From positions 7,505 to 71,504 of the forward strand of contig JAEWYE010000058.1 in the NCBI GenBank assembly GCA_023458755.1: a DNA stretch of 64,000 nt. The letters run 5' to 3'. Below the pieces are notes generated by a model. The model was given only the letters and a program-made list of their open reading frames with translations, did no database searches and was not told the DNA's origin. This DNA is from Bacillota bacterium. GTDB lineage: Bacteria > Bacillota > Clostridia > Oscillospirales > Acutalibacteraceae. A program made the translations under genes and the position numbers. Of the stretch, positions 4,736-64,000 are shown one piece after another (within the stretch, counting starts at the first letter, position 1; each line of letters opens with the position of its first letter).

Positions 4736-5365
4736 TTATTTTAACTCCGTGCCGCCCCATTCTACAACGGCAAAGCCTTTGCGCTCAAAGGTTGGCAGTG
4801 TTTGTTCGGGTACGGTGATTGATTTGTTCAAAGGCTTGTAGACCATGAACACACGCAGTATACTGTCCGGTTTCGGTACTATATTAAGTTTTGCGTAATC
4901 CGTGTAGGCCGAACCCTGAAATGTAATCAAATTATAGGCATTCTCCTGCATTTTTGGCAGCCAATACACAATAAATTCGTTATACTCCTTCGGCGTTAAC
5001 CCCAAATAGGCCAGCTTTTCCTGCAAAAACGCAGCGGTGTCGCTGCCCTTCACCACAAAGCCCTTGCTCATATCATAGTTCACGTTGGAAGTACCTTCCC
5101 AATACAGGTAAGAGTATTCCTTTTGGTCTGCTTTGTTGATGAGCTTTCCGCCCGGATAAGCGGTTACATTCCAGCCGTTTCCGTAGTCGGGGTAGGTGCA
5201 GGTGAACTTGCCGTTCAAGTCTAGCTGCACATTTACATCGGTGGTTTTCGCCGGATACAAATAAATGACAGGCTTCATAGACCTGTGTTCAAAGGGTGAT
5301 TTCCTGCATCCAGCAAGAGCAAACAGCAAAACGGCGCTGAGAATGAGTGCGAGTACCTTCTTCAT
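4736..5365 (-). CDS. Lipoprotein of unknown function
   Basis: N-terminal MKKVLALILSAVLLFALAGC signal peptide with a lipobox cysteine; no recognisable catalytic motif. Confidence 0.55.
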   Translation of the reverse strand: MKKVLALILSAVLLFALAGCRKSPFEHRSMKPVIYLYPAKTTDVNVQLDLNGKFTCTYPDYGNGWNVTAYPGGKLINKADQKEYSYLYWEGTSNVNYDMSKGFVVKGSDTAAFLQEKLAYLGLTPKEYNEFIVYWLPKMQENAYNLITFQGSAYTDYAKLNIVPKPDSILRVFMVYKPLNKSITVPEQTLPTFERKGFAVVEWGGTELK

Positions 5366-13626: not shown

Positions 13627-15327
13627 TCACGGGCCGGCGGTCACAAGTCTCTTCAAAAGAAGCAGGTCAGTAGTATCCACGATGCCGTCATTATCTATGT
13701 CCGCTGCCTGAAGATAAACGCCGCTTAAGCTGCTGCCGTTGTTCAAATGGGCGTATAAAAGACGCTCATCCCGCGAGGTAAGGTTGCCGGATCCGACGAA
13801 ATCCCCTTTTACAACAGCGACCAAATGGTCGATTATACGCTCGTTATCCCGCAGCTCAATGGAAGTGCCCGTACCGATGTTGCCGCTTTCCAGAACGGTG
13901 CCGTTCGGTTTTACCGCGCGTAGCGTGGCGGAACCCATATCAATCCCACTTTTCAGCCGCGCGAAAGTGGTGGAAGCGTTCACGTAAAGCAACCCTTCAT
14001 TTCGGTCAATAGCATATGCGGTGCTTTTTATGCTTGTGGGAATATTAGGAAGACTACCCGTGCCGGAGCTTTCGGGAGCGCTTGGGTCGGAGCCGGCCGG
14101 CGGATTCAGCGGTTCACTGGAAGTGTCGGGGTTAGCGGAAGAACTCGAAACAGATGGAATACCGGAGCTGCCTGTACCGCCGGTACTGCCGGAACTTGGC
14201 GTACTCTCAGTCGGAGAAGAAGAACTGTAGGCCGGTTGACTTTCGCTTGGGGTACTGCTTGCGCCGTTTGTGGTTGGTTTGCTCAAGTCGACAAAGCGAA
14301 TGGTGCTGTCCTGAGAAACAATCGCGGCGGCAACCGTTCCGTTCGCTGCCAAATCGAGCAAATCACCGTCAAATTTGTATTCGGAAAGGAAAGTGCCGTC
14401 GGTGGCGAATTTTCCTACGGTACGGGAGCCGGTTTTGCACAGAATTTCACCGGTACTCAGCATACAGGCGACATCTCCGGTTCCTCCGGTATCTTTTACC
14501 TTGTGAAAAACCGGCGGATTTCCCTGCACCCGGAAAATGGTTCCGTTTGTATCCACTGCAACCGAATTGCTTAAAAACCGATAAGGGATTGCCGGCATAT
14601 CCGAGGAAAACAAAGAGGGCTCCTTGTTTGGTGCACCGGGTTTTACGTTTGCAACCGCAATCTTGGTTCCGGAACTATAAGTGATATAGAGGTAAGAATC
14701 AGGGGACACACAAATGGATGCGAAGTCCCCGTGCGTACCGGTAATAGTGGCTGCAGGCAAGGAAGAACCACTGCTGAAAACAGAAAAAATGTTCTTTGCG
14801 GCACTGTCCAGCACGTATACATTTCCGTTGTTGTCTTCCGTAATTCCCTGCGGGACTTGATTGTTAATATTGCTTAACTTATAGGAAGCATCAAAGAAAT
14901 TTTCAGCTTTTCCTAACGGATACCGTGAAACATCAATACCGGATGCTGCGGTATCCGGGGCTGCTTTTGTCGGCCCGGCAAAATAAATCTCTCCGTTGTG
15001 TGATTCTGCACAGCTATAGGCGTAATCCAGAGTGATACCGCTGCTAGCGGAAAGACATCCTTCATTGGATAAATAAGTGATTTTTGTAGCGTTACCGTCT
15101 GTGCTGGCCAAAATAAAACCAGCACTTTCATTTGGAAACAGATGAATATTCTTTGAATAAACGGATGTGTCCGGGATTTCTTCACCGATTGGTTTCGTAC
15201 TTATTCCCGCTGCCGCACCATAGCATATAAGTAGAATCATTAGGACAGCACTTGCAGAAATAAGAAAATGCCGTCTTGCCAGCCGCTTCACAGCATCACC
15301 CCATTTTATATTTACAAATTGTAACAT
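13627..15327 (-). CDS. Secreted repeat (beta-propeller-like) protein with Ser/Thr/Pro-rich linker and dockerin-like C-terminal module
   Basis: Signal peptide, a long STP-rich low-complexity linker, and the C-terminal DIDNDGIVDTTDLLLLKRLV, which matches the dockerin calcium-binding loop pattern. Confidence 0.5.
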   Translation of the reverse strand: MLQFVNIKWGDAVKRLARRHFLISASAVLMILLICYGAAAGISTKPIGEEIPDTSVYSKNIHLFPNESAGFILASTDGNATKITYLSNEGCLSASSGITLDYAYSCAESHNGEIYFAGPTKAAPDTAASGIDVSRYPLGKAENFFDASYKLSNINNQVPQGITEDNNGNVYVLDSAAKNIFSVFSSGSSLPAATITGTHGDFASICVSPDSYLYITYSSGTKIAVANVKPGAPNKEPSLFSSDMPAIPYRFLSNSVAVDTNGTIFRVQGNPPVFHKVKDTGGTGDVACMLSTGEILCKTGSRTVGKFATDGTFLSEYKFDGDLLDLAANGTVAAAIVSQDSTIRFVDLSKPTTNGASSTPSESQPAYSSSSPTESTPSSGSTGGTGSSGIPSVSSSSANPDTSSEPLNPPAGSDPSAPESSGTGSLPNIPTSIKSTAYAIDRNEGLLYVNASTTFARLKSGIDMGSATLRAVKPNGTVLESGNIGTGTSIELRDNERIIDHLVAVVKGDFVGSGNLTSRDERLLYAHLNNGSSLSGVYLQAADIDNDGIVDTTDLLLLKRLVTAGP

Positions 15328-35195: not shown

Positions 35196-35639
35196 GTGTC
35201 CGTAACAAAAAAGGCGTCCGTTCTTGTTTGTGTTACCGGTCAGCGTGATTGCGACAGACTGATACGAGCAGGCAAAAAGATTTCGGAAGAGCGTGGAATT
35301 CCCATGCAGGTACTTTGTGTACAGCCAACTTCTTCAGGGTACGAAACCAGCTGTGATGAGCTGGAATATTTACGTCAAACCGCGCGTGACGCGTCGGCGG
35401 AAATGTCTGTGTTTTTCAACGACGAAGCAGTTTTAGTGGCGGTTGGCTTTATGAAGCAAATAGGGGCAACCCACATTGTAACCGGTATGGCGGAAGCGCC
35501 GATAAATGGATTTGTAGAGTTAATCCACAAACTTGTACCAAATATTCCGATATCAATGGTATCAAGGGAAGGAACAATATATAATATTTGTCCGGCAAAT
35601 AAAAAAATAAATTCAACCAAGTTTGCACCAGTCCGATAG
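35196..35639 (+). CDS. Universal stress protein (UspA)-like domain protein
   Basis: GTG start with an AAGGAGG RBS. The N-terminal VLVCVTGQRDCDRLIRAG pattern resembles a USP/adenine-nucleotide alpha-hydrolase fold. Confidence 0.45.
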   Translation: MSVTKKASVLVCVTGQRDCDRLIRAGKKISEERGIPMQVLCVQPTSSGYETSCDELEYLRQTARDASAEMSVFFNDEAVLVAVGFMKQIGATHIVTGMAEAPINGFVELIHKLVPNIPISMVSREGTIYNICPANKKINSTKFAPVR

Positions 35640-35964: not shown

Positions 35965-36212
35965 CTTGTTCTATCGTTCATGTATATGCAGGGAGAGGGC
36001 AGGAATATGAAAAGATATGTGCATATATCTTATGAGGTGGAATTGCTTACTAAAAAATTTTCTGTACTTCAATTTATCTACACGATTAGCTTTTAGATTA
36101 ATTTAGAAAATGATTGGTAATTATAAGAAAATTGAATTATTAATAAGACAATATTGATTATAATGAAGTATATTTATAAAAAAATATATATTATGTAAAA
36201 GGATGTGCGAAA

Positions 36213-37793
36213 ATGTCGATCTATTTCAGTAAACTACTGAATTTCTTTAAAAAGCATTTCTCTCTCATTTTGATTATATTGTTTAGTATTACCATCATTC
36301 CTATACTGGTGGTTTCAATCTTTAACTGGGCAGCAGGCGATGATTTTCGTTTTAGTATACAAACACATCAAGCAATGACGGCATCAGGATTTCCCGTTTT
36401 CAATGTCATAAAAGCAGCAGCGGGGATTGCTGCAGGCTCCTATTTTCAGTGGCAGGGAACTTATTCTGCCATTTTTCTAATGGCTCTGCAGCCCGCCATA
36501 TTTTCGCCAAGAGCTTATATTGCGGTTACATTTATCTTAATGGGAGCATTGCTATTCAGCACGGTTTATTTGCTAAATACAATTCTTTCCAAATGCTTTC
36601 ATTTGGAAAGAAAATATATTATATATATTGCGGTTCCCATGCTGTTTTTACAGATTCAGTTTGTTCCTGCACTGGTTGAAGCGTTTTATTGGTATAATGG
36701 CGCAATATATTATACTTTTTTTTACTCCATCATGCTCTTATATATCAGTCAACTCATGCAAATTTATTTCAATAAAGACAAGAAATATAAGAAAGCTTTC
36801 ATTCTTTCCATTGTTTTAGCAATCGTACTGGGTGGGGGGAATTTTGTTACTGGGATCCTAACAACGCTGATTGGTTTGTGTTTTGTGGCTTTTTCGTTGA
36901 TCAATCATTCGACACAAACCAAAAGAACGATACTCCTTGGACTTACGGAGGCTATTCTCCTGATTTCGTTTGCTGTTAGCATCGTGGCACCAGGAAATTC
37001 TGTGCGGCAGCAATTATCAACCAAATCGAGTCTGTTAAATACAATTGGCAACAGCATTGGTCAGGCTGTAAAGGATATTAAGAATTGGACCACTCCGACT
37101 GTCATCATTATATGTTTGTTATTGGTCCCCGTAATAGTAAAAATAGTAAAGCAAACCGATTTGCAATTTCGTTGGCCAGGAATATGGATTGGCTTTACTT
37201 TTTTACTATTTGCCGCCCAAAATGCACCGCCATTCTATGCACAATCCTTTGCTGGGCGAGGCAGATTACGCAATATTGTTTTTTATTCTTTCATTTGGTT
37301 TGTCTTTATTAGTCTGTTTTACGGTATTGGCTGGCTTCAAAGGACATATTCGTCAGCGTTTTCCAGACTCTACAACTCTATAACAGAAAAATTTACTTCA
37401 AAAGAGATTCGTTCAACCAAGAATGCAGTATTATCGATTCTTGTCGTTTTACTTGTAGCGGTAAATTTAAGAACAGCGACTCTCAACAAAATCAGCAGTG
37501 TTATCTGTTCTTCCGACCTCATCACCGGAAAATCTGCGGCTTACAGCAAACAGCTCAGTGACCGACAAAGCATTATTGATAATCCAAACATTGATGTAGT
37601 AAGAATTCCTGCCTTAACGGTATACCCGGAGAGCATAGCGGCCGACGAAATAACCTATGATGAAAATAGCTGGAGAAATAAAAGTATGGCGATTTTTTAT
37701 AATAAAAAATCCATCGTAAAATACAATAAACCGGTTGCTAAACAGGCAACGCCTAAGAAAGCAACCCCACAAGAGCCGGTCATGCTGAACTGA
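36213..37793 (+). CDS. Polytopic membrane protein, GT-C-glycosyltransferase-like (paralog A of 60154..61731)
   Basis: About 11 TM helices and a DD motif (WAAGDDFRF) in the first extracytoplasmic loop after TM1. The ~100-aa soluble C-terminal domain has no known catalytic signature. Confidence 0.7.
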   Translation: MSIYFSKLLNFFKKHFSLILIILFSITIIPILVVSIFNWAAGDDFRFSIQTHQAMTASGFPVFNVIKAAAGIAAGSYFQWQGTYSAIFLMALQPAIFSPRAYIAVTFILMGALLFSTVYLLNTILSKCFHLERKYIIYIAVPMLFLQIQFVPALVEAFYWYNGAIYYTFFYSIMLLYISQLMQIYFNKDKKYKKAFILSIVLAIVLGGGNFVTGILTTLIGLCFVAFSLINHSTQTKRTILLGLTEAILLISFAVSIVAPGNSVRQQLSTKSSLLNTIGNSIGQAVKDIKNWTTPTVIIICLLLVPVIVKIVKQTDLQFRWPGIWIGFTFLLFAAQNAPPFYAQSFAGRGRLRNIVFYSFIWFVFISLFYGIGWLQRTYSSAFSRLYNSITEKFTSKEIRSTKNAVLSILVVLLVAVNLRTATLNKISSVICSSDLITGKSAAYSKQLSDRQSIIDNPNIDVVRIPALTVYPESIAADEITYDENSWRNKSMAIFYNKKSIVKYNKPVAKQATPKKATPQEPVMLN

Positions 37794-37914
37794 TTAGGGA
37801 AGTAAATTTAAAAATCCGTACCAAGATTGATCTCTTGGTGTGGATTTAAATTGGAACTTTAGCGTAAATAACCACCGGATTTGCCGGTGCAGATTAAAAA
37901 TCTTTAGATACAAG

Positions 37915-38103
37915 AAAACCTCCTTTTGCTAAAATAGTAGCAGGTTCGCCAACCGCACTAAAAGCAAAAGGAGGTTTTGTCATGAATAACATAAACAGTT
38001 TATCACATTCGAAGTGGAGATGCCAATATCATATAGTCTTTGCACCGAAGTATCGGTGTAAATTGGCACAATGCCTATCCGTGGCTGATGGGGGATCAGT
38101 TTG
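37915..38103 (+). mobile_element. IS200/IS605-family insertion sequence remnant: left-end hairpin that sequesters the RBS, plus a truncated tnpA
   Basis: Hairpin aaaacctccttttgct...agcaaaaggaggtttt (37915..37978). An ORF from 37982 begins MNNINSLSHSKWRCQYHIVFAPKYR, matching the Y1 transposase N-terminus, then degenerates and stops at 38103. Confidence 0.65.
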
Positions 38104-38363
38104 ACAGTGTTATGAATTATCCGGTGACGAAAGCCTGCGTCCAATTTTTTGCTATGCAGAAGGATAATGCGCAGGACTTTGCTGATAATTTATCCGGCTT
38201 TTTAATGTGGAACTCCGAGCAGGTTAACTTTGCCATGCTGAATCTTTTAGACAGCCAAGGCCCCATGCAAAAGGGAGTTGCATGGACCTTGGTTTTTTTA
38301 TTGAAAATTTTTAAAATTATATTATCTGCTATAAAATATATCTTCAGTGTGATAAAATTGTAA
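38040..38363 (+). pseudogene. Fragment of a GH13 alpha-amylase-family gene (neopullulanase/cyclomaltodextrinase-like)
   Basis: The translation [20 protein letters not shown]...NLLDS matches GH13 conserved region ([23 protein letters not shown]...NLLGSHD). Only ~70 aa of homology remain, and both flanks are missing. Confidence 0.6.
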
Positions 38364-51681: not shown

Positions 51682-53361
51682 ATGTTTAGAAATATGAGAA
51701 TCGGTAAAAAATTAATTCTGACTTTTGTTTTCGTGACCGTACTGTCCAGCTGTGCGGGTGTGGTCGGTCTGATTCAGATGCGGAATTTAGACACAAATTA
51801 TGCGTATGCTTTAAACCATTATGGATTTGCACAGGCGGATATCGGACTTTTCCATGCGGAATTTAACAACAGCCGTACCATTATCCGGGATATTATATTT
51901 GAAACCGATACAGACACAGTGAATACATATTCCAATGAACTTACACAAATTAATGGTAAGGTCGATAGCTGCTTTTCCAATATGAAAAAGAATATGGCCA
52001 GCCAAAATGAAATTCGTTTGTATAATACGATAAAGGATACCTTATCTCAATATCGTGCAATCAGCGACCAAATTGTAATACTTGCGAAGCAAAACAAAAA
52101 GACCGAAGCACAGACATTTTTAAAAGAGCAGGGCGACCCTCTTTCCGACAAGATTTCCGCTTCCATTGATTCTTTGATTCAAGAAAATACATCAAATGGA
52201 AAGAAAGTGTCCGGCGATCTTGCCACGCAAGTGAACCTCTCCTATTTTACCATGATTGCGATTCTTGTTATTGCTTTGGCTCTTTCGTTCTTCATCGCTT
52301 TCACAATTGCGCGCGGAATCAGCAAGCCAATTCACGAAATGGAGACTGCTGCCCAGCGTATGGCACGGGGTGATTTGAATGTGGAAATTCAGGTGAATTC
52401 CAAGGACGAAATAGGAACTCTTGGTGCAGCCATGGCAAAATCTATGGCATCCATACGGTCATACATAGCGGACATTACAAAAACTCTTGGTGAAATAAAA
52501 CAGGGGAACCTAACAGCTGTTTCCCAATTGGATTATGTCGGCGATTATGCGGAATTAAAGGCTTCGTGCGACGGCATTCTGGAATCGTTAACGGATACGC
52601 TGGGGAATATTAATCAAGCGGCGGAACAGGTGGCAAGCGCTTCCGAGCAAGTATCCAACAGTTCACAAATGCTGGCACAGGGCGCGTCGGAGCAGGCAAG
52701 CTCCGTGGAAGAGCTTGCTGCGGCGGTCTCGGAAATATCCAACCACGTTCAGGAAAATACGGAACATGCAGAAGAAGCCAGAGCGAACGCAAACCGTGTT
52801 TGCGCGGATATTGAAATCAGCAACCGGTATATGGATGAAATGGTTGATTCGATGCAACAGATTCACAATTCATCCGGGGAGATCGGTAAAATCATTCAAA
52901 CGATTGAGGATATCGCGTTTCAAACCAATATACTTGCCTTGAATGCGGCGGTCGAAGCAGCCAGAGCAGGAGCGGCTGGAAAAGGCTTTGCCGTTGTGGC
53001 AGATGAGGTAAGAAATCTGGCGGGGAAAAGCGCCAATGCCGCGAAGGAAACGACTGCCTTAATTCAAAGCTCCATGCAGCAAGTGGAAAAGGGTACAAAA
53101 ACAGCGGATGCAACCGCAAAATCTCTGCTCCAAGTAATCGGGAGTGCACAGACCGTTTCGAATAATGTAGAGCACATCGCGCAGGCATCCCAAAAACAGG
53201 CAAGTGCAGTCAGCCAGATAACAACAGGTGTTGATCAGATTTCAAGTGTAGTACAAACAAACTCTGCAACGGCAGAGGAAAGCGCTGCCGCAAGTGAGGA
53301 GTTTTCCGGTCAGGCGCAGTCGTTAAAAGAATTGGTACAGAAATTCAAATTAAAAAACTGA
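51682..53361 (+). CDS. Methyl-accepting chemotaxis protein (4HB sensor, HAMP, MCP signalling domain)
   Basis: Two TM segments flank a ~170-aa helical sensor; HAMP; conserved MCP hairpin tip [22 protein letters not shown]. Start at [10 protein letters not shown] with an AAAGGGGA RBS. Confidence 0.85.
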
Positions 53362-53440
53362 ACAGATTCAGCATTCAAGAAAAGTGACCTCCAGTCATAG
53401 GAAAGAGCTATGGCTGGAGGTTTTCGATGTTATCGAAATA

Positions 53441-53543
53441 ATAGTCAGTTCATTTGAAAACAAAACCAATTTCCAAGCGTAAAATCCATATATCAAAGAT
53501 TTTACGCTTGCTTCTTGGATGTTTTTTAAGGTTAACGGACTAA
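53441..53543 (+). repeat. Copy 3 of the ~103-nt imperfect-palindrome repeat family
   Basis: Full-length alignment to copies 1 and 2, with a perfect internal stem aagcgtaaaatc/gattttacgctt. It lies just downstream of the MCP terminator hairpin (53386..53425). Confidence 0.8.
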
Positions 53544-53784
53544 AACAACATGCCGAAAGGAAAGACTTTTTGGATATTGGCAGACGTACGAATATTATAG
53601 AATGAATATTAACACATAATTCTTATTAGTGATTATAAAATGGTCAATCTGCGCTAAAGTTGTAACATATCACAATAAAATATGCAGAACAATATGAAAT
53701 CTATATAAAACACAAACTATTTTTGGGAAATCTATTGCAAAGCACAGAACGGTGTGCTACTATATAGGCAGTTGATTGAAAACG

Positions 53785-53822
53785 TTACCGATAAGGTTAC
53801 CGATAAGGATTCCGATAACGAT
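53785..53822 (+). promoter_or_regulatory. Three tandem ~12-nt direct repeats (GTTACCGATAAG x2, GATTCCGATAACG) with an adjacent cre-like site TGAAAACGTTACC (53776..53788)
   Basis: The repeats lie 75-110 nt upstream of the sugar-binding protein gene. The cre-like site matches TGWAANCGNTNWCA at 12/14 positions. Confidence 0.4.
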
Positions 53823-53894
53823 TCCATATTTCGACCAAAGGTAGCGTGTTTCATGCAAAACAAATTAACTAGTTGAAAGGGAGAAGAAAACAGT

Positions 53895-55301
53895 ATGAAA
53901 AAGTCGAAAAAGCTATTGTCATTCGCACTTGCAGCTCTTATGATTGCTGGTGCAACAACCGGCTGCTCTAGCAACACGGGTACTAGCTCAGCAACCGCTT
54001 CCACGGATGCTTCCGCGGCAGCAAGCAGCACAGCAGGAGCCAAAGAATTCTTTTATTTGAATTTTAAACCGGAGACCGCAGACAAATACAAGGAAATTGC
54101 AGCGGCCTATCTCAAAGAAAAAGGCGTTACCGTTAAGGTCGAAACAGCGGCTCAGAATAAGTACGAAGAGACTCTGAGAACCGATATGCAGAAGGACGAC
54201 GCACCGGCACTTTTCCAAATCAACGGACCAGTTGGATACCAGAATTGGAAAGATTACTGCGCAGATATGACCGATTCTAAAATCTACAGCTATTTAACCG
54301 ACAAGAATCTCGCTGTAAAATCGGACGGAAAAGTGTATGGTGTTCCTTATGCGGTAGAAGGCTATGGCATCATTTACAACGACGCTATCATGAAGAAATA
54401 CTTTGCGTTATCCAACAAAGCAGTCAGCATTTCCTCTGCTGCGGATATCAAGAATTTTGATACCTTGAAAAAAGTTGCAGAAGATATGACAAAGAATAAA
54501 GCTGCGTTGGGTATTCAGGGCGTATTCGCTTCCACCTCCTTCAAGAAAGGTGAAGACTGGAGATGGCAAACCCATCTGCTCAATATGCCTTTGTACTATG
54601 AATTCAAAGACAACACAGCATCCCAAGATGTTATTTTGAATGGTTTGAATTCAAAGGAAATTACCTTTAAATATGCTGCAAATTATCAGAACATATTTGA
54701 TCTGTATTTGAACAATTCCTGCACAGACAAAAAATTGCTGAGCAACAAGTCTGTAGATGATTCTATGGCAGAGTTTGCACTTGGCAAAGTAGCAATGGTT
54801 CAAAACGGCAACTGGGCATGGGGTCAAATTGCTAAGGTGAGCGGCAACACAGTTAAAGAAGACGATGTGAAATTCATGCCGATTTACACAGGCGTTTCCG
54901 GCGAAGAAAGCCAGGGCATCTGTGTGGGTACCGAAAACTATTACGCAATTAACAGCAAGGTTTCCGCAGACAAACAAAAGGCTGCACTTGATTTTGTCGA
55001 CTGGTTATTCTCCAGTGCAACCGGTAAGAAATTTGCTACGAATGACTTAGGCCTCATTGCTCCGTTCAATACGTTCTCCGACAGTGAAAAGCCAAACGAC
55101 CCGCTGGCAAAACAGGTTTCCGCAGCTTTAGCGACTGGCAAAACGGTCGTGTGGACTTTCCCGGCATTCCCTGGCCAACAGTTTAAAAATGATGTCGGTT
55201 CCGTTCTTCTTGGATATGTTCAAGGACAAAAGAAATGGGATGACGTTGTAACTACTACCAAAAATTCCTGGAAAACTGAGAAGGCTAATATCGGCAGCTG
55301 A
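53895..55301 (+). CDS. Sugar ABC transporter substrate-binding lipoprotein
   Basis: Lipoprotein signal LAALMIAGATTGCSS, followed by SBP_bac_1 family sequence. Confidence 0.85.
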   Translation: MKKSKKLLSFALAALMIAGATTGCSSNTGTSSATASTDASAAASSTAGAKEFFYLNFKPETADKYKEIAAAYLKEKGVTVKVETAAQNKYEETLRTDMQKDDAPALFQINGPVGYQNWKDYCADMTDSKIYSYLTDKNLAVKSDGKVYGVPYAVEGYGIIYNDAIMKKYFALSNKAVSISSAADIKNFDTLKKVAEDMTKNKAALGIQGVFASTSFKKGEDWRWQTHLLNMPLYYEFKDNTASQDVILNGLNSKEITFKYAANYQNIFDLYLNNSCTDKKLLSNKSVDDSMAEFALGKVAMVQNGNWAWGQIAKVSGNTVKEDDVKFMPIYTGVSGEESQGICVGTENYYAINSKVSADKQKAALDFVDWLFSSATGKKFATNDLGLIAPFNTFSDSEKPNDPLAKQVSAALATGKTVVWTFPAFPGQQFKNDVGSVLLGYVQGQKKWDDVVTTTKNSWKTEKANIGS

Positions 55302-55436
55302 TTAGCTGACTATACCATTAAGTAAATAGGTTATACCGTTCCGTATTCAAATGCGGAACGGTATAACGATAATGGGTTTGGTGAGTCTGGATCATTTCGT
55401 CTGACTCACCGTTTTTACTAAAATAGGAGAAATGAT

Positions 55437-56282
55437 ATGGAGAAAACACTGAAAAAGTATTTTGGCATATTTGCATTGCCTACATTATTAGCATTTTTAC
55501 TATACTTTTTAATTCCGTTTATTTGGGGCATTTATCTATCTTTTACCAGATTCACTATTGCAACCGACGCTAAATGGATTGGTTTGCAGAATTATGTCAG
55601 AGCATTTTCCAATCAGGACTTCCTGCATGCGCTTGGGTTTACAAGTATGTTTACCGTTGTATCGGTTATTTCCATTAATGTCTTAGCTTTTTTCTTAGCC
55701 TATTTGTTAACCAGAGGAAGAAAAGGAACAAATGCGTTCAGAACCATATTTTTCATGCCAAACTTAATCGGCGGTATTGTATTGGGCTACATATGGCAGA
55801 TTATTTTTAACGGCATCCTGAGCAAGTTCGGAGTAACACTGACCTATAGTCCGGAATATGGCTTCTGGGGTTTAGTCATTATGATGAATTGGCAGTTAAT
55901 CGGATATATGATGGTTATCTATATAGCCGGTATTCAGAATGTTCCGCGAGAACTGATTGATGCCGCAAAAGTGGATGGAGCCACGGCTTGGGGAACTTTG
56001 CGCCACGTAACGCTGCCACTGGTTATGCCTTCCATTACGATTTGCCTGTTCCTTACCTTGACAAATTCCTTTAAATTATTCGACCAGAACTTATCCTTGA
56101 CAGGCGGCGAACCGCTGAATCAAACCGCTATGCTGGCACTGGATATTTACAATACCTTCTATAACAGAGGCGGCAGCTGGACCGGTGTAGGCCAAGCAAA
56201 AGCAGTTGTATTCTTTATTTTGGTTACGATTATTGCGTTAGTCCAGCTTACTATCACCAGAAAAAGGGAGGTTGAAAACTAA
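55437..56282 (+). CDS. Sugar ABC transporter permease
   Basis: Six TM helices and the EAA loop (IDAAKVDGATAWGTLRHVTLPL). Confidence 0.85.
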   Translation: MEKTLKKYFGIFALPTLLAFLLYFLIPFIWGIYLSFTRFTIATDAKWIGLQNYVRAFSNQDFLHALGFTSMFTVVSVISINVLAFFLAYLLTRGRKGTNAFRTIFFMPNLIGGIVLGYIWQIIFNGILSKFGVTLTYSPEYGFWGLVIMMNWQLIGYMMVIYIAGIQNVPRELIDAAKVDGATAWGTLRHVTLPLVMPSITICLFLTLTNSFKLFDQNLSLTGGEPLNQTAMLALDIYNTFYNRGGSWTGVGQAKAVVFFILVTIIALVQLTITRKREVEN

Positions 56283-57136
56283 TGGAAAATAATTCAATTC
56301 AAAACAAATCAAGAGTAAAAGAATATACACTGTTTTTATTCATGTCCTTATTGTCCGTTGTGTTTTTATTACCTATCCTTATTGTGGCCATGAATTCCTT
56401 TAAGGGAAAGCTTTATATCAGTGATAATCCTTTTGCACTGCCAAACGGCACTACGTTCTCCGGTATTGAAAACTACTTGAGCGGTATCGAACTTGTCGGC
56501 TTCTTTCAAGCTTTTGGGCTGTCTTTGTTTGTTACAGTCTTTTCTGTCCTCGTAATTGTTTTGTTTACCTCTATGACAGCCTGGTACATAGTCCGGGTAA
56601 AATCGAAATTTACTCGTATGTTGTATTATTTGTTTGTATTTGCCATGGTGGTACCTTTCCAAATGGTCATGTTTACAATGGTGAAAATGGCGAATATGAC
56701 ACATGTTGACAACCCGATTGGCATTGTTATTATTTATTTGGGCTTTGGCGCCGGTCAGGCTGTATTTATCTTTTCTGGGTTTGTCAAATCTATACCGCTT
56801 GAAATAGAAGAAGCCGCTGTGATTGATGGCTGCAATCCTTTTCAGACTTTCTTTAAAGTCGTAATTCCGATTATGAAACCGGTGGCAATTACAGTTGCGA
56901 TTTTGAATGTCATGTGGATTTGGAATGACTATCTGCTGCCCTATTTGGTGCTTGGTACGCAGGAATTCAAAACGATTCCGGTTGCGGTTCAGTATTTGAA
57001 CGGAGCTTACGGAGCTTCCAATATGGGTGCAATGATGGCACTTCTGGTTCTGGCGGTTTTGCCGGTAATTATATTTTACGTTCTCTGCCAGAAGTACATT
57101 ATTGAAGGTATCGTTGCGGGCGCCGTAAAGGGTTAA
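56282..57136 (+). CDS. Sugar ABC transporter permease
   Basis: EAA loop (EEAAVIDGCNPFQTFFKVVIPI). Its start overlaps the previous stop. Confidence 0.85.
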   Translation: MENNSIQNKSRVKEYTLFLFMSLLSVVFLLPILIVAMNSFKGKLYISDNPFALPNGTTFSGIENYLSGIELVGFFQAFGLSLFVTVFSVLVIVLFTSMTAWYIVRVKSKFTRMLYYLFVFAMVVPFQMVMFTMVKMANMTHVDNPIGIVIIYLGFGAGQAVFIFSGFVKSIPLEIEEAAVIDGCNPFQTFFKVVIPIMKPVAITVAILNVMWIWNDYLLPYLVLGTQEFKTIPVAVQYLNGAYGASNMGAMMALLVLAVLPVIIFYVLCQKYIIEGIVAGAVKG

Positions 57137-57165
57137 GTGATTATTGGATGCGGGAAGTGGTAATA

Positions 57166-58647
57166 ATGAGAGCAAGTGGGATTTTAATGCCCATATTCAG
57201 CCTTCCGTCCAAATACGGAATCGGATGTTTCTCCAAAGAAGCTTATCTATTTGTAGATCAATTAAAGAAGTGTGGGCAGCATTTTTGGCAGATACTTCCC
57301 TTGGGGCCAACAAGCTATGGAGATTCACCTTATCAGTCTTTTTCCACCTTTGCTGGCAATCCGTATTTTATTGACGTGGAAGCATTAACGGAAGAAGGTC
57401 TGTTAACAAAAGCAGAATGCGAAGCATGTGATTTTGGGGATAATGAACGATATATTGATTATGAGAAAATCTATCGTGCTAGATTTAAGGTACTGAAAAA
57501 GGCATATGAAAGAAGTAAAATTGACAATGATTCTCATTTTCAGAACTTTGTCTGTAAAAATTCTTTCTGGTTGGAAGATTATGCGCTGTTTATGTCCGTA
57601 AAAAGCTGCTTCGGCGAAAACAGCTGGAGTGAGTGGGATGAGGATATAAAACTCCGACATCCGGATGCGTTGGAGCGCTATCGGGAAAAGCTCAAGGACG
57701 AAGTGAAGTTCTATAAATTCATACAATATACCTTTATAAAACAATGGGAAAAATTAAAAAAGTATGCCAATAAAAACGGCGTTCAAATTATCGGAGATAT
57801 TCCGATCTATGTGGCTTTTGACAGCGCAGACAGCTGGTCGCATTCCGAGCTGTTTCAATTTGATGAATCCAAAACTCCGACCGCAGTTGCAGGCTGTCCT
57901 CCGGACGGATTTTCAAAAACCGGTCAACTTTGGGGGAATCCGCTTTATGCTTGGGAGTATCATAAGAAAACTTCGTATGCATGGTGGATTCAAAGAATAT
58001 CGTACTGCTTCCAGCTATATGATGTAGTTCGGGTGGACCATTTCAGGGGGTTTGATCAATACTATTCCATTCCCTATGGTGATCCGACCGCAGAATATGG
58101 CTGTTGGAGGGAAGGGCCGGGTCTTGACATGTTCAAAAAGCTGAGCGAGGAACTTGGTAAGTTGAACATCATTGCGGAGGACTTGGGATTTGTGACAGAT
58201 AGTGTACGGAAATTGGTGCGGGATACGGGTTACCCGGGTATGAAGGTGCTGGAGTTTGCGTTTGATTCCAGAGAGAAAAGCGATTATATGCCACATAATT
58301 ACCACCATAATTGTGTGATTTACACCGGAACCCATGATAATGATACGATTAAGGGCTGGTATCAAGCCATGCCGGAAGCAGACAGACAATTATCCATCGA
58401 CTACATGGGGAATGCGCAGACCGATTTTAAGAATATTCACTGGGATTTTATACGGTTGGCTCTCAGCAGCGTGGCCGATTTAGCCATTATTCCGATTCAG
58501 GATTACTTAGGGCTGGGTTCGGAGGCAAGAATAAACCGTCCGTCCACAATCGGTGAAAACTGGAAATGGCGTTTGCAAAATGGAGAAATAACGGAAGAAC
58601 TTTTGCGTAAAATAGCAAGACTCACTGCATTATATAGCAGAGGGTAA
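57166..58647 (+). CDS. malQ: 4-alpha-glucanotransferase (amylomaltase, GH77)
   Basis: GILMPIFSLPS...GDSPYQS N-terminus and overall match to MalQ/DPE. The alternative start at 57148 has a weaker RBS. Confidence 0.9.
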   Translation: MRASGILMPIFSLPSKYGIGCFSKEAYLFVDQLKKCGQHFWQILPLGPTSYGDSPYQSFSTFAGNPYFIDVEALTEEGLLTKAECEACDFGDNERYIDYEKIYRARFKVLKKAYERSKIDNDSHFQNFVCKNSFWLEDYALFMSVKSCFGENSWSEWDEDIKLRHPDALERYREKLKDEVKFYKFIQYTFIKQWEKLKKYANKNGVQIIGDIPIYVAFDSADSWSHSELFQFDESKTPTAVAGCPPDGFSKTGQLWGNPLYAWEYHKKTSYAWWIQRISYCFQLYDVVRVDHFRGFDQYYSIPYGDPTAEYGCWREGPGLDMFKKLSEELGKLNIIAEDLGFVTDSVRKLVRDTGYPGMKVLEFAFDSREKSDYMPHNYHHNCVIYTGTHDNDTIKGWYQAMPEADRQLSIDYMGNAQTDFKNIHWDFIRLALSSVADLAIIPIQDYLGLGSEARINRPSTIGENWKWRLQNGEITEELLRKIARLTALYSRG

Positions 58648-58922
58648 TATTCCTTTATAATCTAAATTATAAGTTTTAGATTCTAACCTTCTTGTGAAGC
58701 CTTTCGGTCAACAGATGTAAGTCATCGGCTTGCATTTGTTGAGTGAGGGCTTTAAAATTCCGCTTGCTAAGGCGAAAATTTAAAGTGAATTCATATAAGA
58801 AATATCTGTATTTTTATTGCATTTTGTAACATAATTTGCTATATTTATTACTAAGAAACAGCAAGAGCTTGCAGCTTGATTGTGGCGCACAGGAAACTGT
58901 AGGTTAAAGGGAGAACAAGTGT

Positions 58923-59954
58923 ATGGACACAATTACAATTAAAGATGTTGCAAGAATGTGCGGAGTTGGCGTAACAACAGTATCCCGAGCAATTAATAAT
59001 CATCCGGATATCAGCGAAGAAACAAAAGCCATGATTATGCAGGTGATTAAGGAAAATCACTATGTTCCAAACAACAGTGCAAGAAACCTGAAACGGACAG
59101 CTTCCAAAACCATAGCAGTTTTAATCAAAGGTATTACCAACCCTTTTTTCAACCGAATGCTCCAAGTCTTTGAAAAAGAAACCCAGCGAAAAAAATACTC
59201 CTACATTTTGCAGCGCGTCGATGAAAATCAGGATGAAATCGATGTTGCAATCGAATTGGAGAAGGAGAAACGTTTAAAGGGAATTGTATTCCTTGGCGGA
59301 TATTTTTCGCATTCAAAGGAGAAGCTGGAGCAATTATCGGTGCCGTTTGTGCTTAGTACGATCGGAATGACTGCAGAAGTGGATAAGAATAATTATTCGT
59401 CCGTATCAGTTGATGACTTTAAAGAAAGCTACAAAATGGTAGATTATCTTTGCAGCCTTGGCCATAAAAAGATTGCAATCATTTCAGCCAATATGGAAGA
59501 TGAAAGTATCGGAAAGTTAAGATATCAGGGGTATCGGAAAGCCTTGGAAAACAATGGAATCGTATTTAATCAAAATTTAGTATGGTGCATGAAGGATAAT
59601 ATTGAAAGCTATACGATGGAAAATGGATATATTGTAGCAAAAGAACTGCTGGAATCCAAACAAGAGTTCACAGCGCTATATGCCGTTTCTGACAGTTTAG
59701 CAATCGGCGCGTGCAAAGCAATTATCGAAGCAGGGAAAAGAGTTCCGGAGGATTATTCGGTTGCTGGATTCGACGGTTTGGATATGGGCTTTTACTATAA
59801 TCCTTCCATTACTACTATCCGACAGCCAGTGGAGGAAATTGCGGAGGAGACCATTAAAATTCTTTTCCGTTTGATTCAGAACAGAACAACGCAGGAGCAC
59901 AAAACATTTCCGGCAGAACTGGTTGTTCGCGATTCGACTGCTCCTCTGCTCTGA
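58923..59954 (+). CDS. LacI family transcriptional regulator
   Basis: N-terminal HTH ITIKDVARMCGVGVTTVSRAIN plus a periplasmic-binding-protein-like sugar-binding core. Confidence 0.85.
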   Translation: MDTITIKDVARMCGVGVTTVSRAINNHPDISEETKAMIMQVIKENHYVPNNSARNLKRTASKTIAVLIKGITNPFFNRMLQVFEKETQRKKYSYILQRVDENQDEIDVAIELEKEKRLKGIVFLGGYFSHSKEKLEQLSVPFVLSTIGMTAEVDKNNYSSVSVDDFKESYKMVDYLCSLGHKKIAIISANMEDESIGKLRYQGYRKALENNGIVFNQNLVWCMKDNIESYTMENGYIVAKELLESKQEFTALYAVSDSLAIGACKAIIEAGKRVPEDYSVAGFDGLDMGFYYNPSITTIRQPVEEIAEETIKILFRLIQNRTTQEHKTFPAELVVRDSTAPLL

Positions 59955-60153
59955 AAGTTTATAGTGCAAGTTCGGTGGCGATTTGGTTGATACCTTTTGC
60001 CACCGGTTTTTTATCTCAAGTTTCCATTATCGTTTAAACGATTATACATCAGCGGAATAAAATAATTGTAATTCTAATAATAAATTAAAACAGGATTGAT
60101 ATTGCTTATAATAAAATTCGATAATTTCAATATATTTTAAAGGATGTGCGAGA

Positions 60154-61731
60154 ATGTTAACCCTTTTCAATACACTAAGAAATTTTGTCTTCAAGCATTT
60201 ATCTCTTATTTTAATAATTCTGTTTATTATGAGCATTGCACCTCTTCTTGTAATTTCAATATACAATTGGCCGTCTATTGATGATTTTCGTTTTAGTATT
60301 CAAACACGTCAGGCACTGTCAGCAACAGGATTTCCTGTTCTCAATGTAATTAAAGCTGCAGCCACTACTGTTTCCAGCTCCTACTATCAGTGGCAAGGGA
60401 CTTTTTCCGCTATTTTTCTAATGGCTCTGCAGCCTAATGTATTTTCCGCCAGAGGCTATATACTTGTTCCAATCATATTGCTAGCCTTCTTAATATTTGC
60501 AACATTTTATTTGTTAGATACAATTATTATTAAGCATCTGCATTTGGAAAGAAAGTATCTTGTTTATATTGGCATACCAATGCTTTTTTTGCAAATTCAG
60601 TTTGTTCCTTCAACAGTACAAGCATTTTACTGGTATAACGGAGCAGTCTATTATACTTTCTTCTATTCTTTAATGTTACTATATATCAGTGAATTAATTC
60701 GAATTTATTTCAGTAAAAATAAATATATAAAGAGTTTGGTTGTTTCTATTGTTCTTGCCGTTGTATTGGGTGGTGGCAACTTTGTTACCTCTCTGTTGAT
60801 GTCGCTGATTGGTGCATGTTTTATTGTGCTGTCTATATTCAGCCATGCGAAACAATCAAAACGAACAGTATTCCTTATATTACCTGAAGTTACTCTGCTG
60901 ATTGCATTTGCAATTAGTATGGTTGCTCCCGGAAATTCAGTCAGACAAGCGTATTTTACAAAATTAAGCCCACTGCGGGCCATATACCAAAGTATTGTTC
61001 AGGCTTTGACTGACATTAAAAATTGGACGACCCCTACGGTTATCATTATTTGTTTACTGTTAATTCCGGTTATGGCTAGAATTGCAAAAAAGATTCATTT
61101 GTCATATCGTCTACCGGGAATTTTATTGGGAATTACATTTTTACTATTCGCTGCTCAGAATACTCCTACCTGGTATGCCCAATCTTTTGTTGGACCCACC
61201 AGATTGAGAGATATTATTTTTTATTCGTATATTTGGGCCCTTTTTATAAACCTCACTTACTGGCTCGGCTGGTTTCAAAAAACGTATGCATCGTCCCTGT
61301 CTGAATTACGAAATTTATTGAAAAATCGGTTTCATCCACAAGAAATTATTTCCACTAAAACCTTCGTTTTATCACTTCTTCTTGTTTTATTGATTGTTAC
61401 AAATTTAAGTTCTGCTAATCTGAGTAAGGTAAGCAGCTTTATCTGTACTTCCGATTTGCTCAGCGGAAAAGCCGCTGCTTACAATAAGCAGCTTGGTGAA
61501 AGACAATTAATTTTGGATAATCCGAGCATTGAAGAAGTAAAAGTGCCTGCCATAACTGTTTTCCCAAAAAGTTTATATTTAAGTGATATGTCAGGTGATC
61601 CACAATATTGGACGAACAAAAGTCTGGCTGCATTTTACAATAAAAAGTCGGTTCAAACATACAGTATCCCAGTAGTAAAGCCATCAGATAAAGCTCAAAC
61701 CACTAGTGATGAGCCGGTAATATTTAAGTGA
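60154..61731 (+). CDS. Polytopic membrane protein, GT-C-glycosyltransferase-like (paralog B of 36213..37793)
   Basis: About 55-60% amino-acid identity to the 36213 gene along its full length, with the same WxxxDDFRF loop motif. The nucleotide-level similarity extends into the 5' UTR (aaaggatgtgcgaRaatg). Confidence 0.7.
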   Translation: MLTLFNTLRNFVFKHLSLILIILFIMSIAPLLVISIYNWPSIDDFRFSIQTRQALSATGFPVLNVIKAAATTVSSSYYQWQGTFSAIFLMALQPNVFSARGYILVPIILLAFLIFATFYLLDTIIIKHLHLERKYLVYIGIPMLFLQIQFVPSTVQAFYWYNGAVYYTFFYSLMLLYISELIRIYFSKNKYIKSLVVSIVLAVVLGGGNFVTSLLMSLIGACFIVLSIFSHAKQSKRTVFLILPEVTLLIAFAISMVAPGNSVRQAYFTKLSPLRAIYQSIVQALTDIKNWTTPTVIIICLLLIPVMARIAKKIHLSYRLPGILLGITFLLFAAQNTPTWYAQSFVGPTRLRDIIFYSYIWALFINLTYWLGWFQKTYASSLSELRNLLKNRFHPQEIISTKTFVLSLLLVLLIVTNLSSANLSKVSSFICTSDLLSGKAAAYNKQLGERQLILDNPSIEEVKVPAITVFPKSLYLSDMSGDPQYWTNKSLAAFYNKKSVQTYSIPVVKPSDKAQTTSDEPVIFK

Positions 61732-62290
61732 AAAATTAACATTGCAAAGGACATAGCTTATACGGAGAAATCACAAACGGGTACTACGTTTAGAAAAAGC
61801 CTCTACTCCCTTGGCAATGCCAACAAGGCGGAAGCAGAAACATTTAAATATGCTGACCAAGATAATCAGCTTTAGTTCATCTCAGGTGTGTTAATTTGGA
61901 TGGCTGTTCGACCAGTGCGAACGCTTGAAAAGGGATTGCCAAATCTATATAGTTTGTGTTATTGTGTTCATAGCGAATAGGATTTCCTTTCTGTGTGTTG
62001 TTGGTGTGGTAACTTAACTGTAACACAGGCTTTTCCTATTCGCTATCTTTTTTCACTTATTGTAACGCTTCAATTGTAATCCTAGAATTCACAAAAAAGC
62101 ATCTATCCTTGGGCTTGATCATTCTATTTATAACGAGTATTATGTCCCCTTTGTTGGTAGCCATAATGAAAGATATCCTTATTATACCATATTAGAATAA
62201 ATATAATTATTGTCGTGCTAGAATTTATGGATAGTTTTTAAATGTTATAATTAATCTAAAATAATTTTATAAAATGGGGTATTTGCTCAA

Positions 62291-64000
62291 ATGTTTTTGA
62301 AAAATAAAGAAAACAAGCTTCTTTCATCTCAAATTACAGACTCAGCTATTGATGCCCCAAAACTTAAACGCTACAAAACTATCGGTAAAAAAGAGATTAT
62401 TATATTGTTTTTAATATTTATTGCATGTGTTTTGGGGTCACTTTTTGTATATAAAACTGCGGTTAAACCTGCAAGTCAAGGCATTTATGCGGTGCCTTTG
62501 CAGAACAGTATGGACTCAATAATCCAAATTAAATCAGATAGCAATATTCAACAAAAATTTATTTATGATGGTGAAATAGCTGGAATTCAATTATATTTTA
62601 CGACTTCTGGAAATTCAAATGATCATGGGAGTATTATAGTACAATTATGGGAGACAGAAACAAATAATAAACTAGGAGAAGCTGAAGTAGCTTTATCCAA
62701 TATCGCAGATCGACAACCAGTGTCTTTCCGATTTAATCAATTTATTTCATGCAGATCTGGAGAAAAATATAAACTTATTGTGAAACCTAGAAATGATTTC
62801 GATAGTAATTGCTCTTTAGCGATATGCTACAATAGTTTTATTGATAATTCTGTTAATAATTTGTCGAACCTTTATTTTAATGGAAAACTATCCAATGGTT
62901 CAATTGCATTGACATTATTACATACAAATATATTTATTATCAAATTTTTCATATTGTTTTCAGTCCTAGTAACTTTGTTCTTTTTATTTAGTTATTATAT
63001 TTTGTTTATTCTAAAAACAAAAACCCAACTTATATTTTTGCTTATTGCATTTTCGCTAGGGGGGTTATATTTATTTATTCTTCCTCCAATATCTGCACCG
63101 GATGAAGATACACACTTTGCAACGACATATGAATATAGCAATCATTTTTATGGATATTTTGTGGATCCCCAAAAAGATGTAATTCCAGAAACGGTTAATG
63201 CACATACTTTGGTAAATGGTGAGGAACATGTGCATGCCCATTACCAAATTGCTGCGCGAGAAACGGATGCTGTAGCATACTCAAAATTGCTCAAATACCC
63301 TGGGATTGGACAATACAGAATTATAGAAGAAGGAATGTTTCAAAATGCTGGTAATCAAAATCAGATAAATGGGGAAATCCAAGAGTGCGTGTTAAGTGTT
63401 TCACCTATTGCTTATGCTCCAGGCATATTAGGGGTGCTAATTGCAAGACTTCTTGGACTAGGCGGGATACAATTAATATTGTTAGGTCGTTTTTTTAATT
63501 TGGGCTTTTATATTTTGCTTGCTTATTTTGCAGTGAAAATAATTCCCTTTGGAAAGGTGACTCTTTGTTCAATCGCTCTTTTCCCAATGATGTTACATCT
63601 TGCGGCATCTTTTTCTTATGATGCGGTACTAAATGGCAGTGCATTTTTATTCATAGCATTAGTTTTGAGTTTGGCCTATGGCAAGCCTATGTGTTGGTAC
63701 GATGTAGCTGTTTTAATTTACTGTGCGATGGTTTTTGGTTCAATAAAAGCTATATATATGGTGTTATTACTTTTAGTTTTAATTATTCCATTGGAAAATA
63801 AATTTTTCAAGAAAAAAGGAATTGTAATATTCATTACATTATTGGTTATAGCGATATCTACTTTTGTAATTAGCACTTTAGGAAATATACTAACTAAGAA
63901 TTCAAATTTAGTATCAGTTGGAGAAAAATACACGTACGGATATATGGTAAAACATCCAATATGGTTTGTATTCATTTGCGTAAAATCTTTTATTAGTTCA
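62291..64000 (+). CDS. Large polytopic membrane protein, DUF2142/GT-C-like; 3' end runs off the window
   Basis: Open frame from ATG 62291 to the window edge, missing from the ORF track for lack of a stop. N-terminal TM, a ~150-aa extracytoplasmic domain, then many TM helices with PPISAPDEDTHF (a PDExxH-like motif). Confidence 0.55.
   Translation, partial: MFLKNKENKLLSSQITDSAIDAPKLKRYKTIGKKEIIILFLIFIACVLGSLFVYKTAVKPASQGIYAVPLQNSMDSIIQIKSDSNIQQKFIYDGEIAGIQLYFTTSGNSNDHGSIIVQLWETETNNKLGEAEVALSNIADRQPVSFRFNQFISCRSGEKYKLIVKPRNDFDSNCSLAICYNSFIDNSVNNLSNLYFNGKLSNGSIALTLLHTNIFIIKFFILFSVLVTLFFLFSYYILFILKTKTQLIFLLIAFSLGGLYLFILPPISAPDEDTHFATTYEYSNHFYGYFVDPQKDVIPETVNAHTLVNGEEHVHAHYQIAARETDAVAYSKLLKYPGIGQYRIIEEGMFQNAGNQNQINGEIQECVLSVSPIAYAPGILGVLIARLLGLGGIQLILLGRFFNLGFYILLAYFAVKIIPFGKVTLCSIALFPMMLHLAASFSYDAVLNGSAFLFIALVLSLAYGKPMCWYDVAVLIYCAMVFGSIKAIYMVLLLLVLIIPLENKFFKKKGIVIFITLLVIAISTFVISTLGNILTKNSNLVSVGEKYTYGYMVKHPIWFVFICVKSFISS

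Follow-up and report, generated by a model that had tools for sequence, protein, structure and literature searches.

Two diverged DUF6056 membrane proteins of an Acutalibacteraceae bacterium are probable GtrC-type glycosyltransferases of the cell surface

The gtr operon of Salmonella Typhimurium (STM0557-0559) adds alpha-1,4-glucose to the galactose of the O-antigen, and Salmonella GtrC is a heterogeneous, serotype-specific membrane transferase (PMC3688519; PMC13505456). GtrC is polytopic and uses a bactoprenol-linked sugar that is made by GtrB and flipped by GtrA (PMC3688519). The Group A carbohydrate system of Streptococcus pyogenes, GacI/GacJ/GacK/GacL, follows the same logic: a family 2 glycosyltransferase (GT2) makes an undecaprenyl phosphate (Und-P)-linked sugar, a DUF2304 protein stimulates it, a Wzx-type protein flips the product and a GT-C enzyme transfers the sugar onto a rhamnose polymer. 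Side chains of Gram-positive wall polymers set phage receptors, immune recognition and hydrolase binding (PMC8035078). Here we describe two genes, paralogs A and B, on a 64,000-nucleotide stretch of an Acutalibacteraceae genome (GenBank assembly GCA_023458755.1, contig JAEWYE010000058.1, positions 7,505 to 71,504 of the forward strand), which we call the window. A and B are paralogous members of one GT-C family, they share an invariant acidic motif and are under purifying selection, and B lies at the head of a rhamnose-polysaccharide gene cluster.

The enzyme class and its mechanism, GtrC/GacL-type extracytoplasmic glycan decoration, are already known, and A and B are added members. We consider it very likely that both proteins are lipid-sugar transferases of the GT-C type and work on a surface glycan. 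That they are GtrC-type enzymes, moving a lipid-linked sugar onto an exported cell-surface glycopolymer, is a narrower claim that we regard as probable. Two "DUF" membrane proteins thereby become testable GtrC-type glycan-decorating enzymes, tied to a specific rhamnose-polysaccharide cluster and to a candidate lipid-sugar synthase.

Paralog A (36213 to 37793, forward strand) is an open reading frame (ORF) of 526 aa and paralog B (60154 to 61731, forward strand) one of 525 aa. In a BLASTP alignment that is collinear over 520 aa and has one gap, the two proteins are 60% identical, and 79% of the positions are positives. Right behind the first hydrophobic helix, both contain the motif W39-x3-D43-D44-F-R-F-S, which reads NWAAGDDFRFS in A and NWPSIDDFRFS in B. 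D43 and D44 form an acidic pair, putatively catalytic, in the first loop, behind transmembrane segment 1 (TM1); their codons lie at 36339 to 36344 in A and at 60280 to 60285 in B, both on the forward strand. Across 63 aligned sequences, with identity down to 25%, this pair is invariant, as are P30, W80, Q81, G82, P94, Y102, W160, N162, G163, Y167, N210, P260, G261, R265, P322 and R351. The nonsynonymous substitution rate between A and B (dN) is 0.28 and the synonymous rate (dS) is 1.89, a saturated value of about 1.9, which gives a dN/dS of roughly 0.15. From these rates we conclude that both genes are under purifying selection and that the duplication is old. A pseudogene or decaying duplicate was ruled out by the same ratio and by the retention of every invariant residue.

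Both proteins match the Pfam family PF19528, A with 51.7 bits and B with 38.4 bits (E-value 8.3e-10) against a gathering cutoff of 27. The matches cover positions 3-438 (A) and 6-439 (B) of the 442-position profile. The family was named DUF6056 in an older copy of Pfam and is called GT_STM0557_N in newer Pfam labels on public gene calls. By above-cutoff score and by label, Salmonella GtrC (STM0557-0559, GtrC family III) thus belongs to the same Pfam family as A and B; sequence identity to STM0557 is probably very low. All but two of the 120 homologs listed carry PF19528, and the family numbers 7,123 representatives at 50% clustering (E-value up to 1e-3). The closest DUF6056 match among GTDB representatives is 44%. 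Two homologs depart from the simple architecture: P0018 (781 aa) combines DUF6056 with PF22847 and PF04041 domains, and P0221 (890 aa) is matched in two stretches, of which residues 407-889 match best, and may be a tandem or fusion protein.

Enzymes of this kind are recognised by 8-13 TM helices and by an extracellular loop that carries a DxD motif or a modified form of it (PMC8035078). In the AlphaFold 2 model, about 12 long helices are joined by a small domain at the C terminus, and hydropathy gives 7-8 strong TM segments. Foldseek matched the fold to STT3, ArnT and PglB at a probability of 0.99-1.0, and further structural matches include ALG6, AglB, ALG12, STT3B, AftB, DPY19, AftD and ALG9. 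These matches are spread evenly over all GT-C families and favour no subfamily. A and B are therefore polytopic TM proteins with an acidic motif after TM1 and three-dimensional similarity to solved GT-C enzymes. At the sequence level, they share only 7-11% identity with those enzymes (ArnT, PglB/STT3, protein mannosyltransferases [PMTs], AftA/AftB, PimE, ALG3/6/9/12 and PIG-M). PDB sequence searches gave no real match: a single sequence found none and a 63-sequence profile found only spurious nanobody matches. Neither NCBIfam nor PHROGs offers a model for A, B or the DUF2142 protein described below.

The first-pass annotation of this DNA, made from the sequence alone, had proposed two collinear paralogs of about 525 aa with a common WxxxDDFRFS loop after TM1 and a GT-C fold, to be checked by Foldseek against GT-C structures and by conservation of the acidic loop across homologs. 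All of this is borne out by the alignment, the fold matches and the invariant D43 and D44. The same annotation suggested an uncharacterised surface glycosylation or polymer-modifying system. The kind of function appears right, but "uncharacterised" was an overstatement given the PF19528 label GT_STM0557_N.

The orientation of the acidic loop was read from the N-terminal part of the proteins. The first 15 residues contain three lysines or arginines and no acidic residue, and TM2 and TM4 are each followed by a short basic loop. This fits an N terminus inside the cell and a D43-D44 loop outside. Hydropathy and helix counts missed helices and were inconsistent in the C-terminal third, and this topology was used for the N-terminal part only.

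We determined the surroundings of B with the help of a public scaffold (274.7 kb) that matches window positions 52291 to 64000 (11,710 nt) with zero mismatches. Gene order beyond the window end was read from this scaffold, and Rml names were assigned from Pfam domains. B is preceded by malQ and lacI. On its other side lies a DUF2142 gene that opens a low-GC cluster of about 20 kb continuing past the window end, so that the island headed by B spans about 22 kb, from 60154 to a window-equivalent position of about 82241 (L087/L096). The GC content is 44.5% for the window, 40% for lacI, 35.2% for B, 31.5% for the DUF2142 gene and 28-37% for the cluster. Because GC falls from lacI to B and on into the cluster, we take B to be the first gene of the low-GC rhamnose-polysaccharide island. 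The first-pass annotation stated that neither paralog lies near known cell-wall polysaccharide genes. This holds for A, which is truly isolated, but not for B, where it is an edge artefact because the window stops before the cluster. Judging a gene to be remote from polysaccharide genes can thus be an artefact of where a window ends.

Directly past the DUF2142 gene, the cluster encodes a polysaccharide pyruvyltransferase, an FrhB-like Fe-S protein, a GT2, a Wzx protein, a GT4 and a GT2 of 243 aa (about 8.4 kb downstream of the B stop codon, outside the window). These are followed by a DUF2304 protein of the GacJ family, a Cps2T/WchF-type rhamnosyltransferase (NF046071, 601 bits against a cutoff of 500), a GT4, a GT2 and a Wzy_C protein. 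The remaining genes encode an RmlA-type (NTP_transferase) nucleotidyltransferase, an RmlD-type protein (epimerase/RmlD_sub_bind), an RmlB-type protein (epimerase/dehydratase family), a GT2, an RmlC-type (dTDP_sugar_isom) isomerase, a second Wzx and a GH25 muramidase. The 243-aa GT2 most closely matches polyprenyl-phosphate sugar synthases (PpgS, AglJ, a Dol-P-hexose enzyme and ArnC, and in the PDB, DPMS and GtrB). It also resembles PgfS. DUF2304 proteins are the GacJ family, which stimulates GacI and PpgS (bioRxiv 10.1101/180810).

A GacIJKL-type set of components is therefore found entirely within window-equivalent positions 60154 to 82241: a GT2 without TM segments, a DUF2304 protein, a Wzx-like flippase and a GT-C enzyme. 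The island differs from the Gac system in that its polymer appears to be Wzx/Wzy-dependent with a pyruvyltransferase, and in having two or three GT-C enzymes instead of one. Unlike in the Gac system, no rhamnan-type ABC-transporter genes were seen in the 20 kb examined. Compared with Salmonella gtr, the host here is a Gram-positive spore-former, hence the acceptor cannot be a lipopolysaccharide O-antigen. A and B also lack adjacent gtrA and gtrB genes, a prophage context and a Dam/OxyR phase-variation signature. One copy lies at the edge of a Wzx/Wzy rhamnose-polysaccharide island and A/B are multi-allelic, both in contrast to the classic gtr operon.

These comparisons suggest a three-step mechanism. 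A cytoplasmic GT2 would load a sugar onto polyprenyl (undecaprenyl) monophosphate; for B, the candidates are the GacI/PpgS-like GT2 and its GacJ-like DUF2304 partner. The lipid-linked sugar would then be flipped over the membrane by a Wzx-type protein. At the outer face, a GT-C enzyme (B, perhaps A, and/or the DUF2142 protein) would transfer the sugar onto a rhamnose-containing polymer. D43-D44 in the first external loop, together with other invariant outward-facing residues, may act as catalytic or metal-binding acids. The acceptor for B would be the rhamnose-containing, pyruvylated, Wzx/Wzy-type polysaccharide of the cluster opened by the DUF2142 gene, and we see roughly even chances that the product of this adjacent cluster is indeed the acceptor. 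A may be an unlinked copy of second specificity that draws on the same lipid-sugar pool and serves another position, linkage or polymer.

The DUF2142 gene was present in the window as its 5' 1710 nt (62291 to 64000, forward strand) and runs off the window end. This fragment is 100% identical to the corresponding part of P0121, the full protein of 707 aa. The first-pass annotation had described a third membrane protein, DUF2142-like and with a PDExxH-like motif, and this is borne out: PF09913 (DUF2142) matches with an E-value of 1.4e-33, and the protein is itself GT-C. It has one N-terminal TM segment, an extracytoplasmic beta-sandwich at residues 65-212 and then the GT-C core. The PDEDTH motif (PDExxH, P269-H275), encoded at 63098 to 63115 on the forward strand, is conserved in 31 homologs, among which D271 and H275 are invariant and E272 is kept in at least 90%. 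The Pfam score lies above the cutoff, and the gene is the first of a wall-polysaccharide cluster. In PF09913 membership, PDExxH motif, GT-C fold and location in a rhamnose-polysaccharide cluster, P0121 resembles WpsI/WpsJ of the cwps/rgp loci of Lactococcus and Streptococcus thermophilus. It differs from them by its extra N-terminal TM segment and beta-sandwich, a carbohydrate-binding-module-like ectodomain. A and B sit in another Pfam family than WpsI/WpsJ.

This neighbour raises the question of whether A and B could be polymerase- or ligase-type GT-C enzymes, as proposed for WpsI/WpsJ, which would polymerise lipid-linked repeats or transfer a whole chain to another wall polymer. The DUF2142 family has been given these roles in the lactococcal and S. 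thermophilus cwps/rgp loci, and B has a member of that family next to it where a Wzx-dependent cluster begins. The GT-C fold, moreover, cannot tell mono- from oligosaccharide donors, and PglB and STT3 are among the matches. Conversely, the cluster already has a Wzy_C protein and the DUF2142 GT-C protein for such steps, and the Pfam family of A and B is named for a gtr-type locus that transfers a single glucose. At other loci, DUF6056 genes are found beside genes for GtrB-like Und-P-monosaccharide synthases and for GtrA, and the lactococcal roles of WpsI and WpsJ (polymerase, chain transferase) are themselves predictions. We judge a polymerase or ligase role for A and B unlikely.

The pairing with GtrB-like enzymes emerged when we clustered the neighbours of DUF6056 homologs at 80 loci. 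A GT2 of about 320 aa directly adjoins the DUF6056 gene in 11 of the 80 loci, placed upstream, downstream or divergently, in Oscillospiraceae, Butyrivibrio, Bacilli and others (among them L009, L010, L030, L043, L072, L074 and the Butyrivibrio loci). The GT2 of L043 is a full-length homolog of a solved GtrB (sll0501, PDB 5EKP, E-value 2e-54) and of ArnC. L009 holds a complete DUF6056-GT2-GtrA operon (PF04138, E-value 1e-25). Such a DUF6056-GT2(-GtrA) neighbourhood is a hallmark of three-component transmembrane glycosylation systems, as described for Gram-positive bacteria in a review (PMC8035078). The GtrB-like neighbours in these loci and the GacI/J-like pair in the cluster next to B are contextual evidence that A and B may use a polyprenyl-phosphate donor. 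In two distant genomes, OafA-like membrane acyltransferases (Acyl_transf_3) adjoin the DUF6056-GT2 pair (L072, 7873-8985; L074, 12412-13404), which suggests combined glycosylation and acylation modules. One large neighbour "family" was discarded, as it consisted of antisense shadow ORFs in high-GC Flavonifractor.

Several observations weigh against a GtrC-type role in surface-glycan decoration. The family name derives from a Pfam label, and the link from PF19528 to STM0557 comes from that label together with literature on the locus. An Enterococcus faecalis DUF6056 protein had a weak to negligible effect in a phage-defence test. The outward orientation of the D43-D44 loop is argued from the positive N terminus and from analogy, and the helix-count topology is not self-consistent for the C-terminal part. 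Orphans in unrelated contexts make up 69 of the 80 homolog loci, which makes the evidence from gene neighbourhoods indirect. For A, polysaccharide genes are absent for at least 22 kb on both sides. A Pfam scan of all non-shadow ORFs of at least 150 aa found no gtrB-type GT2 in the window. Nor does the window contain a gtrA-like flippase gene, judged by hydrophobic non-overlapping ORFs of 60-170 aa (highest grand average of hydropathy 0.24). Finally, the 560 bp between B and the DUF2142 gene hold a long, strong terminator-like hairpin with a U-run behind it (61970 to 62055, forward strand; dG -30.5 kcal/mol, z -4.4), which makes co-transcription of B with the cluster unlikely. The outer stem of the hairpin, ATAGCGAATAGGA/TCCTATTCGCTAT, pairs perfectly over 13 bp.

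The isolation of A also bears on a different idea, namely that A and/or B are PMT- or Pgf-type protein O-glycosyltransferases acting on secreted or surface proteins such as S-layer, cellulosome or amylosome parts. A is unlinked to any polysaccharide locus, a dockerin protein is encoded, and the 243-aa GT2 resembles PgfS and AglJ, which feed protein glycosylation. The structural matches, however, fall evenly over the GT-C families with no preference for PMTs, and neither a MIR nor another PMT-specific domain nor a Pfam PMT match was found in A or B. Position and composition, furthermore, tie B to the polysaccharide island. We therefore think protein O-glycosylation distinctly improbable, somewhat more so than a polymerase or ligase role.

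A itself (GC 38.1%) is placed between spoIIID and a two-component/ABC sugar locus. Between M23 peptidase and spoIIID genes lies an ORF without a Pfam match (35196 to 35639, forward strand, 147 aa). Next to A, we found a scar (37860 to 38363, forward strand) made of an IS200-like left end, a transposase start and a GH13 C-terminal fragment. The left end carries a structured leader (37873-37978, forward strand) with a hairpin and a stem-loop that sequesters the Shine-Dalgarno sequence (dG -41.8, z -6.8). It is followed by the first 25 codons of an IS200 Y1 transposase (37982-38056, forward strand), cut at about 38057. In a near-identical strain contig (L095), the transposase ORF continues to the end of the contig (69 residues) and gives a Pfam match. 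Abutting the remnant is a fragment of a GH13 alpha-amylase gene encoding its C terminus (about 38062-38363, forward strand). This fragment is 87% DNA-identical to a GH13 gene beside, and upstream of, the gene of the homolog P0005 in L090.

Such neighbours might suggest that A and B serve the adjacent sugar-uptake and alpha-glucan utilisation islands, for example by acting on maltodextrin-derived or membrane-linked glucans, and not a wall polysaccharide. A is followed by the GH13 fragment and the sensor-regulated ABC sugar locus, and B lies behind malQ and lacI. Besides the GH13 gene upstream of P0005, 11 loci (10 Flavonifractor and one Lawsonibacter) have a GH13 gene some 2.2 kb downstream of the DUF6056 gene, and P0018 is fused to a PF04041-bearing segment. 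The GH13 link is nevertheless a synteny confined to a few lineages, and the GH13 sequence of the window is a pseudogene scar beside an IS200 remnant. For both reasons, we rejected a functional link to sugar uptake or GH13. The contexts of homologs are otherwise unrelated to sugar uptake, the GC content of B fits the polysaccharide island and not the mal genes, and the variable B allele begins exactly behind lacI and its intergenic region. Of the three alternatives to GtrC-type glycan decoration, this one appears to us the most remote, with very little chance of being correct.

We compared the regions upstream of A and B, for which the first-pass annotation had claimed nucleotide similarity including a promoter-like stretch. 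The similarity is real. Of the 15 bases before the ATG, 14 are identical (AAAGGATGTGCGA[A/G]A), and a -10-like box, ATATTG[A/C]TTATAAT, is common to A (36151-36164) and B (60099-60112). An alignment of the 150 nt upstream of each gene reached z = 6.0 relative to mononucleotide shuffles (observed score 36, shuffle maximum 28). The 5' region of A (36151 to 36212, forward strand) comprises the -10-like ATATTGATTATAAT (36151-36164) and the leader with its ribosome-binding site (RBS), AAAGGATGTGCGAAA (36198-36212). The 5' region of B (60085 to 60153, forward strand) has a promoter-like TTAAAA-16-TATAAT (60085-60112) and the leader/RBS AAAGGATGTGCGAGA (60139-60153). Rfam, searched at gathering thresholds over the whole window, gave no match at all, so that neither A nor B is preceded by a riboswitch or leader RNA of a known kind.

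The leader and -10 box also occur upstream of other members of the clade. Together with A and B, the homologs P0002-P0005 make at least six alleles or paralogs that are mutually 58-76% identical. The leader comparison covered A, B, P0003, P0004 and P0005, and all five have both elements. With synonymous sites between A and B at saturation, the conserved leader points to constraint or selection, or to (repeated) recombination, and not to a recent duplication. The first-pass annotation had read the shared upstream region as a segmental duplication that has since diverged. Paralogy stands, but the simple version of this history fits poorly with the saturated dS, with the six or more alleles or paralogs, and with an apparent exchange of alleles at locus B.

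The sign of this exchange is a contig of a near-identical strain, L089 (SRR15661551). It matches window positions 59219-60118, the 3' end of lacI and most of the intergenic region, at 94-100% per 100-nt bin and at about 99% overall. The match persists until a few bases before the B start codon, beyond which identity drops to 62-81% per 100 nt. In place of B, L089 has a gene for P0004, a protein that shares 58% identity with B and 65% with A. In a contig of a sister run (L094), the B allele is present at 99% identity throughout. The comparison suggests that one allele of a specificity gene was replaced by another at a fixed locus, the left junction lying in the conserved leader. A chimeric join is conceivable, since L089 is a short contig from a single sample, although it crosses the junction without a break. 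The first base of L088, a contig from a different sample with 100% identity to the scaffold, falls exactly on position 62055, so the hairpin at 61970-62055 may mark the right edge of the variable B cassette.

It is possible, though we think it rather doubtful, that A, B and P0002-P0005 are interchangeable specificity cassettes. The conserved promoter and leader, ATATTGNTTATAAT ... AAAGGATGTGCGA, would then be both a shared expression signal and the left homology arm for recombinational swapping between loci and strains. gtrC genes of Salmonella are likewise heterogeneous and exchanged by recombination (PMC3688519; PMC13505456), which parallels the replacement at locus B. The cassettes would be analogous to this gtrC diversity, but without phages or phase variation. 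If the idea is correct, strain-level surface-glycan "serotypes" would exist in an uncultured, dockerin-bearing and spoIIID-carrying lineage of the Clostridium class. Considering that an allele was apparently replaced at locus B and that wall-polymer side chains set phage and immune recognition, surface-glycan diversity may be under selection in this lineage.

A pattern scan of IMG/VR found no relatives of A and B, and INPHARED gave only four unannotated "Bacteriophage sp." faecal contigs of 5-8 kb with 22-32% identity. Given the null result and these weak matches, a phage-borne conversion module was dropped.

Three further features of the window lie apart from A and B. The first is a 566-aa protein (13627-15327, reverse strand) with a type I dockerin at its C terminus and no further Pfam match. 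Its presence indicates that the organism probably builds a cellulosome- or amylosome-like complex. The second is an ORF of 209 aa without a Pfam match (4736-5365, reverse strand). The third, at 7036-10103 (reverse strand), consists of two successive genes, one for an FtsW/RodA/SpoVE-family protein whose N terminus carries an FHA domain and the next for a class B penicillin-binding protein transpeptidase.

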